From contig OX597819.1 of the NCBI GenBank assembly GCA_951406725.2, positions 80,290,001-80,354,000 on the forward strand: a DNA stretch of 64,000 bases, given 5' to 3'. The position numbers and the translations under genes were made by a program. Each line of letters begins with the position of its first letter. The first letter of the stretch is position 1. Shown piece after piece: positions 3,041 to 58,069 of this stretch. The stretch comes from Octopus vulgaris. Its lineage: Eukaryota. The notes beneath the pieces were generated by a model. The model had not been told where the DNA came from. It made no database searches and saw nothing but the letters and a program-made list of their open reading frames with translations.

Positions 3041-3417
3041 ATTATATAAAAGGGCTTAGTAAAATAAATTACTTTGCCGCATACTGAACTCATTAGAAAT
3101 AGCAGCTAAAAAACTTTTTTAAAGCTATTTCTAATACTTAAAGAAAATCTCTCTCATATATAGTGTTTGCTTAATTCAACTCACAAAAGTTTGGGGGTAA
3201 GGACATTAAAAAATCAAATGCTAAGGTTATTCTCAAATAACCTTAGCATTTGATTTTTTAATGTCCTTACCCCAAACTTTTGTGAGTTGAATTAAGCAAA
3301 CACTATATATGAGAGAGATTTTCTTTAAGTATTAGAAATAGCTTTAAAAAAGTTTTTTAGCTGCTATTTCTAATGAGTTCAGTATGCGGCAAAGTAATTT
3401 ATTTTACTAAGCCCTTT

Positions 3418-3425
<8 letters not shown>
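3041..3425. repeat. Near-perfect long inverted repeat (~190-bp arms, 4-nt spacer)
   Basis: 3041-3231 is the reverse complement of 3236-3425 apart from homopolymer-length differences. Spacer CTCA. The element is flanked by (TA)n on both sides. Confidence 0.95.
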
Positions 3426-3459
<34 letters not shown>

Positions 3460-3577
3460 TTTTATCTCCATTCAACAGAATATCCCTCCCCACTTTCTAG
3501 CAGTTCAAAATAACTTAAAGAAAATTCTTCAGTCAGAAGATAAATAAGTATATGTATTGATGGAAAACCTCTATAAA

Positions 3578-3661
3578 TGGCTGATGATTGCTCAACATTT
3601 TAAAACTGTTGAAATACTTAAAGTGTTTAATAAAATGATGTAGCGTGAAACGATCGTACCA
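3578..3661 (+). ncRNA. Type I hammerhead ribozyme motif (Penelope-like type, palindromic stem III)
   Basis: TGG-CTGATGA-[extended stem II with TGCT/AGCG and CATTTTA/TAAAATG]-GAAAC-GATC-GTA-CCA. Intact core boxes, GUA cleavage triplet, inside a (TA)n-flanked ~340-bp island. Confidence 0.75.
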
Positions 3662-3793
3662 AATTACCGAAGATATTCTTGTTGTTTATTTTGATTATAA
3701 TCACCCCATGGATTTATATGAATAACACCGTACAATATTCTGGTGCCTCTGACTTAAGTACCATATTCATTTGAATCTAAATTTTGCTGAAAG

Positions 3794-3825
<32 letters not shown>

Positions 3826-4119
3826 ATAAAAGGACAGAGAATATAAAAACAACATGAAAATGACCAGCTTGTATAAGTATGGCTATAAACTTTGATTATT
3901 AATAGAATATATTAATACAGGAAAATAATAATATAAAGTGAAATGACACTATAAGTGTTTTAAGGACTAAACTGATTTTAATAATTTTCTAATTAAGTTA
4001 ACTTTAAATATTTAAGCTCAGACAATTATTATCAGTTTTTTAAGACCTTGGAGATTATATGACATCAAGTCCTTGATTAATTCTTTTTCAATATTTTATT
4101 ATTTGCATTAATTCTTCTT

Positions 4120-4560: not shown

Positions 4561-4985
4561 CGGGTTGATAATCTCAGATTAATGAAATTCTTCAAAACTA
4601 GCATGTCATTTATCATTCAAGTACATGCTCCTATTTATTTCTCTTAGGTAATTTTGGTTTCAAGTATGGAAATTATTTAGGCCATAAAATGTGTTCTTCA
4701 CTTTTTCAGTATATCTGTCTCCCCTGCTGAAAATAAGGTACGAACATGAGGCTACAGGTGCCTTCCTGTCTTCAGACTACCAGACATTCTTTCCCTTATT
4801 AGAATGTCAATTTTAGAGAATTATTGATTTTTGAAATTATCTCACTTTTTCATTTTGGAGTTAGCCCAATTGCCACCAAACGATTGGTCTTACGTCTCAG
4901 ACAATGGAGATAATTCTAATAAATCAGGAATTTATCTTGTTCGCTGTCTAATATACACCTTGTTAGTCTTCGTGATATATATGTT

Positions 4986-5049
<64 letters not shown>

Positions 5050-5652
5050 CAAGAGGCAGTGTTTGTGTGTATATACATACTTGCTTACTCATACACATAC
5101 ATACATACATACAAACATACATACATACATACATACATACATACATACATACATACATACATACATACATACGTAGGTACGTACATACATACATACATAC
5201 ATACATACATACATACATACATACATACATACATACATACATACATACATACATACGTACGTACGTACATACATATGCGACAGCTGTCCACTCGTGAACC
5301 AAGAAGACCATCATTGACCATTAAAAACATTGTGCACCCCGGCACAATTATACTTTAAATAATGAGCCCATCCCTGCATAGACCTACACATCTGCACATA
5401 CGGCAGACCAAAGTTTCCCCATTCATTACACTGGTGATGTGTTTTCGAGCAGCTCTCTTGAGTTCAGCATAAAAAGTGATTGTTTCTTCAAGCATACACA
5501 CTTCCTTTATTTGTTTCATTCATTGATGGCGATGACAAGCATCGCTTCTCTAGAGGATCCTTAGGCTGTCACTATATAGTGAGCTTGCTTGTAGAAAGCG
5601 CCCTCAGAAGAAACAGTGTAAAGTCTTTGCTCGGGACATACAGACAAGCACG

Positions 5653-22583: not shown

Positions 22584-24425
22584 GAGTGAGAGAGCAGTTC
22601 ATGCCATCAAAGTGGCACTGGGGTAAAATATACGAAGCCCAATATACCCATCATAACTACCCGTCTGATAAGGGTACACCAGTCACATGCATCACAACCA
22701 TATGTGCGCGACATAGTGATCTCATATCAAGATAAACACCACATGACCTTGCAGGTGGGGCCCAGTTAGAATTTTCTTCACGTCAAGTAGCCCATCCCGC
22801 TCAAAAGGTCCTTGAATAGGGGTTGTTTAAAGATGATGAACGAAACACCAATGTTTCCAGATGTGAATCATTCAAACCCCAAAGAATCCCTCTCAACACA
22901 TGGCTATGATGCTTCCCCACTACTTCTGCTCGTGATCAGAGATGCACATATCGTCAGCCACTAAGGGACACGCTTAACTGGTTAAGGTCAAATAACTGAC
23001 AAGCAAATATGTGGTATTGAGCAGGATATTTGCTGTAGCCCATCTTTTATACCAAGACAAAACAATGTACGAGGGGCGTTCAATAAGTAATGCCCCTGAC
23101 CCACTCCCCATAGCAGTAGAGCAACGACACTTGGCACAGTTATTAGTCTTTTCCTACATAGGAACTACCCAGAGTTATGCATTTCTCCCATCGTTTGATA
23201 CAGCTCTGAAGACCGTTTTTGTAGAAGACCCCAGCTTGGTCCTCCAACCACGACGTGACTTCAGAAATCAAGGCTGCATCATCTGGGAAACGCTTTCATT
23301 TCAAAATCAACTTCATGGCTAGGAAGAGGTGAAAATCAGAGGGTGCAAGGGGATGAGTTCATAGCTGCACGCCTGTGCTTCTGATCTGGCGACACGCGAG
23401 TTGTGGACCGGAGCGTTGTCCTGCAGGAGGAGGATGGCTTTGCTGATCTTGCCCCGCCTCTTGATTTTCATAGCTTCTCTTAATTTCCTCAAAAGTGAAG
23501 CATAATAGGCTTCTGTAATAGTGGTACCCTTTGCCAGGAAATCTGTCATCACTACTCCGTCCTGGTCCCAGAAGACTGTGAGCATAACCTTGTCAGCGGA
23601 GGGCTGCACCCTTGCCTTCTTTGGAGGAGGTGAGTCACGGTGCTTTCACTGCATTGACTGGGCTTTGGTCTCTGGATCATAGTGATGGACCCAGGTTTTA
23701 TCCTGTGTGATCAGTCTTTTGAAAAATTTTGACTCATCTTCTTGGCACATCTCCAAATTCATCCTCGAGCACTCAACGCGTTCTTGCTTCTGGAAAGGTG
23801 TGAGCAACCTGGAAATCCATCTGGCAGACACCTTTTGCATATGCAAATGGTCATGAATGATAGTTTCCACAGACCCGGTACTAATCTTGACCTTATGGGC
23901 TATTTGGCGAATAGTTATGCGTTGACCTTCCAAAATGGCAGCCTCGACTTGACGGACAGACGTCTCATCAACGGCAGAAGGGGGCGACCAGATCTGGGAG
24001 CTGTTTCTACAGAGTTCCGACTATGTTTGAATTCACAATGCCAGCGTTTTACAAGGTCATATGATGGGGCATCATCACCATAAGTTACTTTCATTTCATC
24101 AAAAGTCTCCCGTGGTGTGCGTCCTTTCAAATACAAAAACCAGATCACTGCTCGACACTCAACAGGCTCCATTTCACACTTGACTCAATTCAAACACCTG
24201 TAAATCAGAAACCACAATTAGTTCAGAGCTGTAATTCGCCACTTAATCTATAGAGGTATAAATAAGTGCACATGCAAACAATTGCAAGTGGGTCAGAGGC
24301 ATTACTTATTGAACGCCCCTCGTACATGATAACACTTCCAATCAGTTAAGATCAGAAGCCACGAGAGTTACTGCCTGGTACTGCATCAGGGCATTCAGAT
24401 GTCACGCAAGCCACTGCCTGGTATT
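22584..24425. mobile_element. Non-coding (TTA)n-flanked interspersed element interrupted by a mariner
   Basis: Both flanks of the mariner join seamlessly in the homolog at 14725-15092. (TTA)n lies on both sides. Confidence 0.75.
23068..24324 (-). mobile_element. Full-length mariner (Tc1/mariner) DNA transposon with a frameshifted, inactive transposase
   Basis: TA TSD and TIRs CGAGGGGCGTTCAATAAGTAATGCC / GGCATTACTTATTGAACGCCCCTCG. ORF pieces: MEPVECRAVIWFL...RSGRP (HTH), KVSARWISRLLT (WVPREL-like), LITQDKTWVHHYDPE, KVMLTVFWD...LLLQDNAPVH. Confidence 0.97.
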
Positions 24426-46539: not shown

Positions 46540-46975
46540 ACCTATTAAGCTCAGTATCTCTCCACACGGTGGGTCCGCCACAGCTGGACATATTGCGTTG
46601 CAACCAGACTCATGACAGTTCTGTGACCTTACATGCATTCACAAACCTCCTGGTAATCCAAACACTGCCCTTAACTGCTTCCTCTCCACATTCTTTGATG
46701 GTCTTCAGATACACCAGCCACCTTCAGAAACCTTCTAAGAAAAGCTGCTGGGAAACGCTTGCAGACGACCTCGAACGCAACCAGCTCGCAGATGTAACCC
46801 TTCTCCTGAATCTCAGCTATCAGCTCTTCATAGCCCAACACCTTCCGCTCATGGGCCTCAGCAATGCTCTCCTTCCTTGGCACAGTAAGCTCCCCAAGGA
46901 CCACACATTTCTGACTCTCATCTACCAAAACCAGGTTAGGCCGGTGTGCTGACACAACGATGTTTTCAGGCAATG
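46540..46975 (-). mobile_element. HERO-like RLE LINE 3' fragment
   Basis: PENIVVSAHRPNLVLVD...VVLGELTVP.KESIAEAHERKVLGYEELI...GY....FEV matches the RPD..ELTVP.E...EA.ERK..KY pattern. Confidence 0.8.
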
Positions 46976-47060
46976 GCTTGTCTATTTACAATTCTGCCAA
47001 CACATCTTCAGGTTCTTTTTCAAAATATTGTTAATCTAATTTTACATCACCTTAAAATTA

Positions 47061-52019: not shown

Positions 52020-52625
52020 TGCCTTTCTTACTTTGCACTTCACTGACCCTGCCTTTCTTTAGTCCCGCCAATTCTTGCCACGCTCTCTTTCTTCTCCCTC
52101 TCTTTAATTCCTTCTTTCTCCTTTTCTCTCTCTTCTCTTCTCCCGTGACCGCCGGTCAACTACAGCCTTTCGGCTTCTGACCAGCGCCAGAACAACACCG
52201 ATTTCTTCGTCTGCCGTAAGTCATTATTTGTCTAACACGACAGCTAATTTGAATTGTCTAAAGTCGAAAGACGCCTGTTGTTTTTGTCCTGTTATTATTA
52301 TTATTAATATTATTATTATTGCTTTTTGTATTTATATTCGTATTACTTTTTGTTTTTTGTATTTAATTTCGTGTAACATCGTCTGTTTTTCTGTCCTTGT
52401 TTCGCATACATTCGATCCTTTTTCCAAAAAATCTAATGCTCGTAGCTTAGTTTTTCCTGGGGCTGGCCAGATCGGAGCAATCTCAAGATTAATCTGCCGA
52501 AATTGCGAGGATGATCCGGTTCTTGACTGAAGATTAGAGGCTTCGAATGACCCGCCCGTTTTCGTAGCGTCTATTTGAATGTTTTGCGTTCTTGTCCCAT
52601 TTTGTATTTTTATATATATTTTTAT
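52020..52625 (+). mobile_element. (TA)n-flanked non-coding element related to 60227-60760(-)
   Basis: Shares CTGCC.GAAAT...GGT.CTTGACTGAAGA...GGC..CGAATGACCCG..GTTTT and a CGTGACCG motif with the 60 kb element. Confidence 0.55.
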
Positions 52626-52907: not shown

Positions 52908-53064
52908 GCATACATACTAATATACAAAGGTAGAAATATTTGTGTACATATATATAACAACATAAATGTGTATCTGTGTGCGTAGATATTTTTGTATGTA
53001 TGTATACACACACACACGCACACACACACATTCACATATATATACGTGTGTGTGGAGGTACTGA

Positions 53065-53128
<64 letters not shown>

Positions 53129-53654
53129 GTGCATGTATATATACGTAGCTACGTACTTATGTACGTATGTATGTACGTACGGATGTGTGCGTGCATGTAT
53201 GTATGTACGTATGTATGTATTTAGCTATATACCTCATTTACACGAGTGTATATACATTGATAACATGACAAAAAATCAAACAGAAAAGAGAACGTGCTTG
53301 ATGTGACAAACGGCACACCACACACACATACACAAAAACACACATAGACACACACACGCACACACTTACACACACATACATGCAAACACATACACTCACA
53401 TACGCTTATACATCCACATATATACACATACGCTTATACATCCACATATATACACATACTAACATCGCCATATTGAGAGCCACAACATATCCTTATGATA
53501 GCCTCAGTGCACTTTCGCTGACGAGTTAATCTTGCTCTATCAGACGACTGACAGTTTTGCTTCCTTAATAGTTCCATATACATTCACCTGTTGTATGGGC
53601 TGTTTTTCTTCATATTCTTCAGTTTTAGGGCCTTCATCATTACAATAGTTCAAA

Positions 53655-54545
53655 TGGCGGCGAGCTGACAAAATCATTAGTGCGTCGGGCAAAAATATTT
53701 TGCGTCATTTCTTCGGTTCTACGCTCTAAGCTGAAATTCCGCCGAAGTCGATTTTTTCCTTTCATCCTTTCAGAGTCGATAAAATAAGTCCCAGTTAATC
53801 ACTGGAGTCGATGTGATCTGATACAAACTAATATTTATATCAGATAGTGCAGTGAGCTGGCAGAATCGTGAGCATGTCGGGCAAAATGTTCTGAATTCAA
53901 ATTTTGCCGAAGTCAACTTTGCCTTTCATCGTCTTGGAATCGTTAAAATGAGTATCAGTTGAATACTGGGGTATATGTAATCGACTTAACCCGCACTCGA
54001 AATTGTTGACGTTCTGCTAAAATTTGATACCAATATTTATATCAGATAAGGCGGTGAGCTGGCAGAAAGGTTAGCATGCCGGGCAAAATGCATAGCGGGA
54101 TTTCTTCGGCTCTTTATGTTCTGAGTTCAAATTCCGCCATGGTCCACTTTGCCTTTCATCTTTTCGGGATCGATAAAATAAGTACTTATCTGACGAACAC
54201 TAAGGATCAATGTAATCGACTATCCCCTACTCCCAAAATTACTTGCCTTTTGGCCAAACTTGAAATCATTATTAGCGCACTGGCAGAATCGTTAGCACGC
54301 CGGGCGAAATGCTTAGCAGTATTTCGTCTACCGCTACGTTCTGAGTTCAAATTCTGCCGAGGTCGACTTTGCCTTTCATCCTTTCAGGTTCGATTAAATA
54401 AGTACCAGTTACGCACTGGCGTCAATATAATCGACTTAATCCGTTTGTCTGTCCTTGTTTGTCCTCCCTGTGTTTAGCCCCTTGTGGGTAGTAAAGAAAT
54501 AGGTATTCCGTCCGTCCTTATGTTCTGTGTTCAAATTCCACCGAT
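53655..54545 (+). mobile_element. Head-to-tail cluster of four or more SINE family B copies
   Basis: Heads at about 53655, 53850, 54050 and 54280, with a partial at about 54505. The spacer AATATTTATATCAGATA recurs at about 53830 and 54032. Confidence 0.85.
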
Positions 54546-54574
54546 GTGTGTGTATGTATGCGTGTATATATATA

Positions 54575-54605
<31 letters not shown>

Positions 54606-54607
54606 GA

Positions 54608-54685
<78 letters not shown>

Positions 54686-54813
54686 GTATGTATATATATA
54701 TATATATATATGTATATTTATATATATATGTATATATATATATATATATGTATAATTCAATAAAAGAAAAAATAAGAAGGCTAACAGCAGGCTGTTTCAC
54801 CTCATACCGAAGG

Positions 54814-54874
54814 AGCGCCGATGACGGAATTCAAACTGTTTTCCACGTTTGCGATCCAGAAACATATGTCCGCT
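54814..54874 (+). ncRNA. Type I hammerhead motif, copy 1 (CCGAUGA variant)
   Basis: AGCG-CCGATGA-[GGA..CAAAC/GTTTG..TCC]-GAAAC-ATAT-GTC-CGCT. Confidence 0.7.
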
Positions 54875-55358
54875 ATTAACGGTAAGTGATTGAATTCGTA
54901 TATTTGCCACTCCGGTTTTGTGTATGTGAGCCGTAAGGGCCTTCGTTTTTGGATTCTCCACTTATAGAAATTGGAAAAACGGTCTTTGACTGCCATTTCT
55001 AATTCCTTCGGTATGAGGTGAAAGAGCCTGCTGTTAGCCTTCTTATTTTTTCTTTACTATATACTGAACCTTACAAAGGTCTTGACAATTAATTTGTCGT
55101 ATTTACATACCGAAATTTACCGGTAAATAATTGTTGGTTACATGATAAACCACAGGAAAATTATTTACCATTTTTATTGAATTACCATGTGGATTCCTCA
55201 TTCCATTACGATTACCCAGAAGCGCGCATAGCAGAATTTTGGAGGGAAAATTTACGTTCCCAGTCGCCACTTAGTTTTAACATCTGCACTTTTCCCCCAC
55301 TATCTGATGTCGCTGGGTCAGAAGTGAGGGCTAGTGGCATTTAGTAAAACTATCGAAT

Positions 55359-55423
55359 ATAGCGCCGATGACGGAATTCAAACTGTTTTCCACGTTTGCG
55401 ATCCAGAAACATATGTCCGCTAT
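55359..55423 (+). ncRNA. Type I hammerhead motif, copy 2
   Basis: ATAGCG-CCGATGA-[stem II]-GAAAC-ATAT-GTC-CGCTAT. 6-bp stem I and palindromic ACATATGT stem III. Confidence 0.72.
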
Positions 55424-55658
55424 TAACGGTAAGTGATTGAATTCGTATATTTGCCACTCCGGTTTTGTGTATGTGAGCCGTAAGGGCCTTCGTTTTTGGA
55501 TTCTCCACTTATAGAAATTGGAAAAACGGTCTTTGACTGCCATTTCTAATTCCTTCGGTATGAGGTGAAACAGCCTGCTGTTAGCCTTCTTATTTTTTTC
55601 TTTACTATATATATGTATATATATATATATGTAAATATATATATACATATATATTTAC

Positions 55659-55711
<53 letters not shown>

Positions 55712-57081
55712 ACAGACACACACACACACGCACATATATATATATATCGATAGATGGAGAGATAGATTTACATACAAATATACTCGCATATATGCGTGCT
55801 AGGCTGCTTATTCTTATGATTTAATTCCATTACTCTCTCAATTACTTACACTGACTCCCAAACTCTCAAATATTTCCTTCTCTTCCTTTCTGTCTAAGTA
55901 TAAAATAACCTCTAAAATTGTCTTTCTAGCAAAATTTGCTTCCACCTTTTTTTATCTATTCTCCAAGTTTGCTCTCGACAAGTACACATTTTCAATATGG
56001 TACATGAATTTGTTTCCCTCTTTTACAATTGCTATCAATCCTTGGTTTCGTTCAGTTATTCTCTATACTGCTGTTAGTATATTAAACTAGTTCTCTGGGG
56101 CCTCCGCCCTATTTTAGTAGAATTCTCTTCGATTGATGATCTCTTATTCCTTCGATCTCTACTTCTCTCACTGCTTCTTCTATCCCTCTTTACATTTTCA
56201 CTGCCTGCATGCTTGACTTCCTGTCTCGATAGTTGGCTGATTTGCTGGTCATTTCCTTCTTTCTTCACTCCCACCTATGTCAGATTATCATCAATTTTTA
56301 TATTTAATGCATTTCTTTTTATATTTTCCTGTTTCCCCCTCCTCTCTCAGCACAGCCACTGCTTTCTCTTTGAATATCCTAACAGAGCGCAGAGTAAAAA
56401 CAATCAACAATATAGGGATATTAGCTATGGCGTTGGGTTTAATAAGCAATATATGTGTGGGTGTATCCACGTCTGGTGTGCGTGCGGGTATGTGTGCATG
56501 TGTGTACGTGTGTCGGTTTGCTTCCGCAAACAGAATAGATTAGAACTCAAACGTAAGTAAATATATTTTTCTCTTATTTTTTATAGGTAGAAAATACAAA
56601 GTGACTCAAAAACTGAGAATTTCGCGAGTGGCACTTATCAGGAGGGAGAGAGAGAGGGAGAGAGAAATCAACAAAACACAAATTGGTTTTAGGTTTCAAG
56701 TTAAATACCATATTGTAGATAAGTTCTTGATATGTACAGGGTAGTTGGATGAACGAAAGGGTAACAGTTGACATAGCATGATATACGCCAATGAAATCCG
56801 TTCATAAGTTCAGTATACAAGGGAGGGCAGGAGATGATAATAGGTTGGGATACGAGTAAACCTAATCCTAGATATAATAATCTTTATTACTTTCGGGAAG
56901 AAATTTGTAAATACCACCTCATTAGGGATGGTATGTGATATAGAAATACCATAAGATTTAGACTAAGAGAATCTAATAAATAGCCAAATCTGAAAGATTG
57001 CGCGTATGTAAATGCGATTATAGATTGTAGACTGATATGTGTATGAGTGCAAATATGTGTGCTTGTGCGCAAATAAATCTA

Positions 57082-57156
<75 letters not shown>

Positions 57157-57416
57157 CCAAAGTGTACGTACGCCGTTATATGTATATAAAAATGAATAGT
57201 CTAGGTGTGTGTGTATGATGTATGTATGTGTATATGTATATATATGTGTGTGCGTATACACACAAGAACACACACGTTTATCCATATGTAAGTATGTGTG
57301 CGTGCACGTACATAATATTTATGCTTGTGTTTGTTTACAAAAACATAAATGCATGCAATAAATATACGTGAATACGTGTTTGTATACATATGTATGTATA
57401 TATGTATTTATGTATG

Positions 57417-57450
<34 letters not shown>

Positions 57451-58069
57451 TGTATGATTTTGCATGTGCATAAGAACGTTATCTTATAGTCACAAAATGT
57501 ATACAAACACAATAACTCGTACATATAGAAAAAAATAAGCATATAAATATATATTTATGTGTAAATATATATTTATATAATAAATATATATTTATATATA
57601 TATATATATACGTACGTATGTTATATGCAGCATGTATTATTAGATATACACACTTATGTGTGTGTGTGAGTGAGTGATATCCTAATATATATGTAATGGG
57701 CATTATGTACGTGGACATAGAGATTTCTGTTTAACTTATGTGTACGCATTTAATTATTTATCTAAACACTCACAAACGCATAACAATGTAAATGCTTATT
57801 TTACATGTTTGGTTTGTATTCATTCACAAAGCATTGTTTGTCTGTCTATATCAAATACACACACACGGAGAGAGGGAGGGCCGAAAGAGGAAGTGAAGGA
57901 TAGACAGTTATAGATATACATATGTATACGTAGATATAGTAAATAGATGCACATACGCAGGATTGTATAAACACACGTATGTGTATATCCTTATACACAC
58001 AATTATATGTATATAAATATACATTCATATAAGCACACACTCAAATACATACGCACACACACACATATA

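Follow-up and report, generated by a model that had tools for sequence, protein, structure and literature searches.

The locus at positions 54,753-55,611 of the Octopus vulgaris stretch analyzed here (64,000 nucleotides, hereafter the window) is one recent copy of a protein-free, non-LTR retrozyme family, inserted in a (TA)n microsatellite. It consists of 1.45 head-to-tail copies of a 547-nt unit and a short inverted arm. There is little doubt that the element is a non-autonomous Penelope-type element. The favored reading, to which a probability of roughly 0.6 is assigned, is that the retrozyme RNA is slowly cut by dimeric hammerheads with a C at position 4 of the core (C4), is probably circular, and is copied in trans by a TA-targeting Penelope reverse transcriptase (RT)-endonuclease.

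Architecture of the Locus

Two near-identical direct repeats (54814-55063 and 55361-55611), which differ by one substitution and by one T of a T run, lie at a spacing of 547 nt (Table 1). Both contain CCGATGA...GAAAC ATAT GTC, with the triplet ending at 54870 and 55417, and (TA)n tracts border the element on each side. As the preliminary description had stated, the element is non-coding, with no open reading frame of more than 83 a.a. (stop to stop) wholly within it. The same description had compared the repeats with pseudo-LTRs; the direct repeats are real, but they form 1.45 tandem units rather than an LTR/spacer/LTR arrangement, and arms elsewhere in the family reach about 3.9 units. An inverted copy of the 3' end is likewise present at the 5' end, although it is 62 nt long and in two pieces instead of a single 52-bp segment. 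Finally, a hammerhead had been placed at the start of each repeat. Copy 2 is complete, with a 6-bp stem I, whereas copy 1 is down to 4 bp because the inverted arm substitutes the 5' side of its stem I.

Table 1. Features of the retrozyme insertion (window coordinates).
Feature	Position	Strand	Details
(TA)n-rich microsatellite, left side of target	54565-54754		Flanking (TA)5 or longer, on each side, in most insertions of the family
Short inverted arm	54753-54814	-	Unit 371-359 (13 nt, from the second 3' end) and unit 242-191, meeting over a 3-nt overlap
Full 547-nt unit	54814-55360	+	39% G+C, no ORF
Hammerhead copy 1	54814-54874	+	Stem I 4 bp; core CCGATGA 54818-54824; predicted cut after 54870
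Conserved box common to sister families	54990-55015	+	Second copy 55537-55562
120-nt tail between the fixed 3' ends of the family (unit 250 and 369-371), internal to the unit here	55064-55184	+	
Hammerhead copy 2, complete	55359-55423	+	Stem I ATAGCG/CGCTAT, 55359-55364 with 55418-55423
Copy 2 core and helix II	CCGATGA 55365-55371 (C4 = 55366); extra C 55372	+	Helix II base GGA/TCC, upper hairpin
Copy 2 3' side	Extra A 55405; GAAA 55406-55409	+	Helix III palindromic, ACATATGT; cleavage predicted after 55417
Partial second unit (unit 1-250)	55361-55611	+	Runs up to the first of the two fixed 3' ends
(TA)n-rich microsatellite, right side of target	55606-55708		

The truncation of copy 1 bears on the activity of the locus. 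The predicted pairing probability of stem I is about 0.1 in copy 1 vs. at least 0.9 for an intact stem. The earlier proposal that this locus releases a 547-nt monomer is doubtful, as the 5' stem I is truncated and the contigs found in sequencing runs (see below) represent another haplotype. According to these folding predictions the window locus itself probably does not release a monomer, and the copy is probably a dead end because its first hammerhead is missing part of stem I. The 547-nt monomer, taken from cut site to cut site, is predicted to be more stable than shuffled sequences (z -3.1 linear; z -2.7 circular, the latter on 40 shuffles), and the 3' half of the conserved box at 54990-55015 is complementary to 55106-55114.

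Anatomy and Age of the Family

The young age ascribed to the element in the preliminary description is borne out by its relatives, which are dispersed on many contigs. A search of the octopus's own genome (assembly G000) with the unit returned 152 matches from the best 40 of 991 candidates, with full units mostly 91-100% identical, and unit length among family copies is 547-555 nt. A pattern made of the core and the start of helix II matches the genome 301 times (control pattern, 0), while the conserved box has 480 exact matches and 792 in a looser form that includes sister families. The youngest clade holds 19 of the 45 full units (support 99/95), the window locus included. From 221 retrieved loci, 112 insertions were scored after removal of overlaps and of Penelope-like element (PLE) loci; two of these are sister families, L205 and L206 resemble one duplicated site, and the sample, having been picked by score and motif, favors long, hammerhead-bearing copies.

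The Penelope-type anatomy suspected earlier is found across these insertions, which have tandem and inverted arms, random 5' ends and 3' ends fixed at two points that lie 120 nt from each other. Of the 112, 65 have two arms that run in opposite directions. In 38 of these 65, the end of one arm falls near unit position 250 and that of its partner near 370 (bins 225-252 and 355-382); none has two 370 ends, and two have two 250 ends. The window locus is one of the latter, and its left arm holds a 13-nt remnant of the 370 end. One-armed copies stop near 250 or 370 in 43 of 47 cases, and TA is found on both flanks of most scored insertions. The cited sections of PMC8557442 describe the PLE pattern as one of partial tandems with inverted arms and a tail on one side, and the PLE tail, as the relevant excerpt of PMC11167929 has it, is the span between two internal RT start sites, demonstrated in vitro.

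The 5' ends are distributed differently. A total of 191 are scattered over the unit, with two exactly at the predicted cleavage site and no clear excess there. The arms therefore usually read through the cleavage site, for up to about 3.9 units (L034). Variants private to a locus, at positions covered at least twice per insertion, are present in all copies in 22 instances, in some copies in 7, and in one copy in 164; 16 of the 22 fully shared variants span inverted arms. For instance, the insertion L017/L020 (G000:C13:44507517-44509176) has a private 18-nt duplication right after the predicted cut site in all three units. Such sharing fits one template per insertion that is read repeatedly, whether from a circle or by template jumping, and it could instead stem from unsampled source loci. 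In L111 (G000:C1:43242888-43245908), a broken core, ACGAAGA, with an A at position 3, is present in both tandem units, which means that a presumably dead core was copied at least once.

The Hammerhead Motif

Comparison of related sequences supports the motif as a genuine member of the type I hammerhead family with a palindromic helix III. The preliminary description had proposed a check with hammerhead profile models. In the event, a Rfam scan of 53000-57500 gave no hammerhead at the locus even at E up to 1, and returned microsatellite look-alikes only. Nor does the isolated 73-nt motif exceed shuffled sequences in stability (z -0.3 and -0.9). The motif nonetheless goes beyond chance, because its stems covary and reversed control patterns give 0 matches. 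The expected stem covariation was found in 14 representative motifs (10 subfamily forms and 4 sister-family forms), in which 99.2% of cells are paired and both letters differ in 7 of 18 pairs, three of which lie in stem I and one of which goes from C3-G8 to U3-A8. Scores as high were reached by 0-1 of 500 shuffles, and slid alignments are 31-42% paired; both controls are inflated, as the structure was derived from the same 14 related sequences and kin can beat shuffles without structure. The strong covariation is contributed by the U4 sister families.

The letter after A9 and the A before G12 are unpaired in all forms, and are thus features of the motif rather than decay. Ten columns of the catalytic core (besides 4, 7, and 17) are invariant at the lineage level within the family, while N7 varies. 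Column by column within the family, neither the core with its stems (2 of 30 vs. 92 of 517 variable columns, p 0.085) nor the core taken by itself (p 0.14) is significantly conserved. The main forms of helix III are self-complementary (AACAUGUU, AACACGUGUU, and AACAUAUGUU) or nearly so (AACACCGUGUU, with one central mismatch). Helix III has switched between self-complementary forms, as would be expected for cleavage as a dimer, the mode that the cited part of PMC4209133 gives for PLE hammerheads whose helix III is palindromic. Double CpG decay could alternatively account for the CG to TA step in helix III.

A second hammerhead-like string, at 55009-55040 and 55556-55587 (GGTATGAG..GAAACAG CCTG CTGTT), was rejected as it has no CNGANGA core. 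A strict motif scan of the whole window gave no further hammerhead; the same pattern misses the known one, so this result carries little weight.

Age and Expected Effect of C4

The preliminary description had left it open whether C4 is a natural variant core or a mutation that predates the duplication in the window. It is a natural variant of the family, much older than that duplication. Among the 301 cores, 159 have C4 and 142 have U4, such that neither CCGATGA nor CTGATGA strongly dominates, and matches to the youngest helix III form comprise 94 C4 vs. 0 U4. In a tree of unit 1-250 (96 rows, outgroup L165), C4 is basal and runs along the backbone, with the U4 forms nested. A single C4 clade is rejected (p-AU 0.014, 37 picked rows), and therefore C4 is either ancestral with reversions or has more than one origin. 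Reversion from C4 to U4 is made easy by CpG decay. The history of position 4 drawn from these trees is limited by the single long-branch outgroup and by possible mosaics. The youngest clade combines C4 with C17, while all older forms have U17.

A viroid variant with the same U4C change (Ambros and Flores, 1998) had considerably lower activity in vitro and retained infectivity, according to the passage in PMC3088659, and single changes in the CUGA turn led to low activity in a mutational scan (PMC9901934, cited section). The relevant portions of PMC10085705, PMC3907566, and PMC1636495 give no cleavage rate for U4C. No report of octopus retrozymes or of an animal CCGAUGA core was found in the literature covered, which was mostly open-access main text. 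Search descriptors built on the canonical core would miss C4 families. The presence of C4/U4 and U17/C17 subfamilies in similar numbers within one genome is a natural experiment, which bears on whether Penelope-associated hammerheads must cut for mobilization and on whether the constancy of U4 that descriptors assume is true of animal ribozymes.

A Closed Contig in Public Sequencing Runs

Eight of 24 listed public runs were examined, none of the 24 being recorded as RNA; their RNA nature is guessed and DNA content is possible. Three runs from three studies (X2, X4, and X13) each have a single contig of 579 letters, which makes one full turn of the unit and overlaps itself by 30 letters, giving a closed 549-nt loop. 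These contigs keep C4 and GUC, have no flank, and break at differing points. In X1 the identical haplotype is split into three contigs that abut, X16 has thin coverage of most of it, and X18 has thin coverage of a GUU form. Of the large unlabelled runs, X19 (76% covered) has at least 500 short mixed contigs and X20 has 248. C4 is retained in six of six small runs, and the small total size and single haplotype of these runs suggest that they are RNA.

A loop can close in this way only where reads cross the cleavage site, as they would on circles or on an uncut RNA with terminal redundancy; a linear monomer that had been cut exactly would stay open. The closed unit-length contig fits a circular RNA, the contigs themselves carrying no strand or end information. 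Junction reads joining 55417 to 54871, proposed earlier as a sign of a circle, are uninformative because tandem DNA contains the same joint (genomic 55417 to 55418). As a sequence, the closed contig provides a target for proving the circular template that has long been proposed for Penelope-type copying.

The haplotype in the runs differs from the window locus by 8 letters and 2 insertions, and its nearest relatives are L010-type copies. Its two private letters never occur together in G000, where one is present at 1 of 153 sites and the other at 1 site, at different loci, and they are not among the matches listed for X19 and X20. L051 was considered as the source and rejected, since it has the first private letter yet is a 355-nt fragment of another subfamily. 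The simplest reading is that the source is a locus absent from the assembly, or one of another population or species. At L051, two long fold-back insertions (3300-3960 and 4690-5290) flank the short family fragment. Other contigs in X2, X4, X13, and X16, some at similar depth, match only two conserved boxes (55100-55139 and 55524-55562), and related families are therefore present in the same runs.

A Candidate Autonomous Partner

GIY-YIG loci are plentiful in the octopus genome, and 150 of 6136 candidates were scored. The specific Penelope partner implied by the preliminary description did not emerge, as 0 of 50 GIY-YIG loci taken from these 150 of 6136 have an end homologous to the unit. Box matches at L097, L078, and L142 were considered as PLE-end homology and rejected, being separate insertions beside PLEs, or weak and outside the PLE ends.

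One PLE (L131-L140; e.g., G000:C6:133343400-133349400) is young and abundant, and has an intact 781-a.a. frame with RT and GIY-YIG domains as well as an upstream frame of 479 a.a. with no Pfam match. It has two 3' ends, about 40 nt from one another, at which it runs into (TA)n; a helix is predicted to span both ends, and in L139 each arm shows a different one of them. A CxxxCxxC stretch precedes the nuclease in the 781-a.a. protein, a feature that the cited section of PMC8557442 describes for the clades Neptune and Nematis. The pLTR of this PLE contains a hammerhead-like motif, UUGAUAA...GAAACAUGUU, with U3-A8, which equals the core and helix III of the sister family L164/165. Since its ends are not homologous to the unit, the 781-a.a. 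element is a candidate driver by behavior only.

Proposed Mechanism and Alternatives

In the proposed mechanism, the transcript would come from a source locus that has two or more complete hammerheads, and two hammerheads would pair via their palindromic helices III and slowly cut at GUC or GUU. The monomer would then be closed to a circle, with stem I holding the ends, and its lone weak hammerhead would seldom cut again. A TA-targeting Penelope enzyme would nick both strands, and DNA synthesis would be primed inside the RNA at unit 250 on one side and at unit 370 on the other, run round the template and stop at random. The arms would be joined through short overlaps, and the window copy may be one such product. 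The observed parts of this scheme are the young, dispersed copies, insertion in TA, 3' ends fixed at two points, arms in inverted orientation, read-through of the cleavage site, the covarying fold, the long retention of C4, and the closed contig. Features that weigh against it are U4C, which is expected to lower activity, a single unpaired letter to either side of helix II, and U17 in every subfamily but the youngest.

The alternative that survives best, although it is unlikely on balance, is that the same Penelope-type element has a hammerhead that is inactive, or nearly so, and dispensable; the template would be an uncut, terminally redundant linear RNA, and the tandems would arise from the RT jumping back. 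U4C, U17, and the single copied broken core of L111 are in line with such an idle ribozyme, as are arms that cross the cleavage site without a clustering of 5' ends there. Insertion of a lizard PLE in vitro was unaffected by hammerhead mutants, as the cited part of PMC11167929 describes, and certain PLE clades are without hammerheads (PMC8557442, section on clades). The closed contigs are compatible with this reading too. Against it, those of three runs have no flank, and an idle ribozyme sits poorly with the ten other core columns, which have no lineage-level change, with the survival of self-complementarity in helix III through several replacements, and with the passage from U17 to the favored C17 in the youngest C4 subfamily.

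It is improbable that the abundant RNA represents a lineage partly maintained by viroid-like RNA copying of a circle, with the genomic copies as occasional retro-inserted snapshots. The dominance of one haplotype in runs of four studies under three organism labels would agree with this proposal, as would the private letters, which coincide at no G000 site and are not listed in X19 or X20, and RNA copying has been raised for plant and mussel retrozymes. On the other hand, error-prone RNA copying would explain the near-identity across studies less well than a single conserved source locus in DNA, the animals behind the runs may belong to a population or species different from that of G000, and a single locus can drop out of an assembly or out of contigs such as the incompletely covered ones of X19. 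No minus-strand hammerhead was seen. An extended version, in which an abundant 549-nt U4C circle is partly kept by RNA-to-RNA copying, Penelope writes it into TA, and C4 is a working, deliberately slow core, is no less improbable; if it were true, the genomic family would be a fossil record of a viroid-like RNA.

Any circle might also stem from spliceosomal back-splicing at a donor-like GGTAAGT 11 nt past the cleavage site rather than from a ribozyme. This is very improbable. While the heptamer is retained in the family's subfamilies, and introns are possible in PLEs (PMC4209133, in the cited part), the motif is absent from three sister families, no skipping joint was found in the 8 runs examined, and the closed contigs retain all 549 nt. 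A DNA-level satellite or local duplication with a chance likeness to a hammerhead, to which the missing Rfam match and the ordinary stability of the isolated motif might point, is scarcely tenable and already largely refuted by the stem covariation and by the insertion anatomy, in which copies scattered over many contigs stop at fixed points on the 3' side and at random points on the 5' side, have inverted arms and sit in TA.

Comparison with Known Systems

The retrozyme interpretation places the family in a known class, to which it adds C4 and U4 sister subfamilies within one animal genome. Like the metazoan non-LTR retrozymes in the cited sections of PMC7229834 and bioRxiv 10.64898/2026.07.22.740005, it has non-coding tandem units of less than 45% G+C, one type I hammerhead per unit, a structured monomer, and PLEs in the same genome. 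Like the mussel retrozymes of those sections, it has a presumably expressed sequence unmatched by database copies, and a similar mismatch has been noted for plant retrozymes. It differs in its unit of 547-549 nt vs. about 170-400 nt (a reported range and not a strict criterion), in having C4 in half of its copies and the canonical CUGANGA in 142 of 301, and, as far as those sections go, in its two-armed fixed-end insertions and the unpaired letters on both sides of helix II; cleavage and circles are predicted for the octopus family.

Neptune-type, endonuclease-positive PLEs, as portrayed in the excerpted parts of PMC8557442 and PMC11167929, share with the octopus family the partial tandems, an inverted 5'-truncated arm, microsatellite targets, a repeat-borne hammerhead, and a one-sided tail between two start sites. 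In contrast to them, the octopus family has no ORF, its tail is 120 nt vs. 30-40 nt, and its sequence is not homologous to the end of any PLE among those examined in the octopus genome. The minimal dimeric PLE hammerheads in the cited part of PMC4209133 resemble the octopus motif in their palindromic helix III, the extra letter after A9, a long helix II, U3-A8 covariants in relatives, and low expected activity; the octopus motif departs from them in U4C, a full 6-bp stem I, and an extra A before G12. The core change itself is that of the viroid U4C hammerhead, which appears as a single variant in the passage of PMC3088659, whereas octopus C4 is found in whole subfamilies across the depth of the family.

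Plant LTR retrozymes have a type III hammerhead, true LTRs, a 4-bp target duplication, and PBS/PPT, unlike the type I fold, tandem units, variable 5' ends, and TA flanks seen here. Viroid-like replicons have no DNA template, are copied from RNA to RNA, and usually carry ribozymes on both strands, whereas the octopus family has hundreds of DNA copies, the exact run haplotype being absent from G000.

Relatives and Neighboring Sequences

Sister non-coding families carrying the conserved box are present at L164/L165, L097, L155, L220, L158, and L172. Where visible, their helix II base is identical and likewise flanked by unpaired letters, and their cores are U3-A8 or U3-G8.

Several other sequences lie in the window. 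Just left of the element (53640-54545) are 4-5 diverged copies of a dispersed repeat of about 200 nt, the last of which is cut by the TA tract, and similar sequence is also present in L145. On the minus strand, possible coding exons of a host gene lie in 52100-52500, antisense to the element. Farther away, also on the minus strand, the fragment at 46674-46985 resembles the nuclease end of a non-LTR retrotransposon, and that at 23146-23295 the end of a mariner-type transposase.
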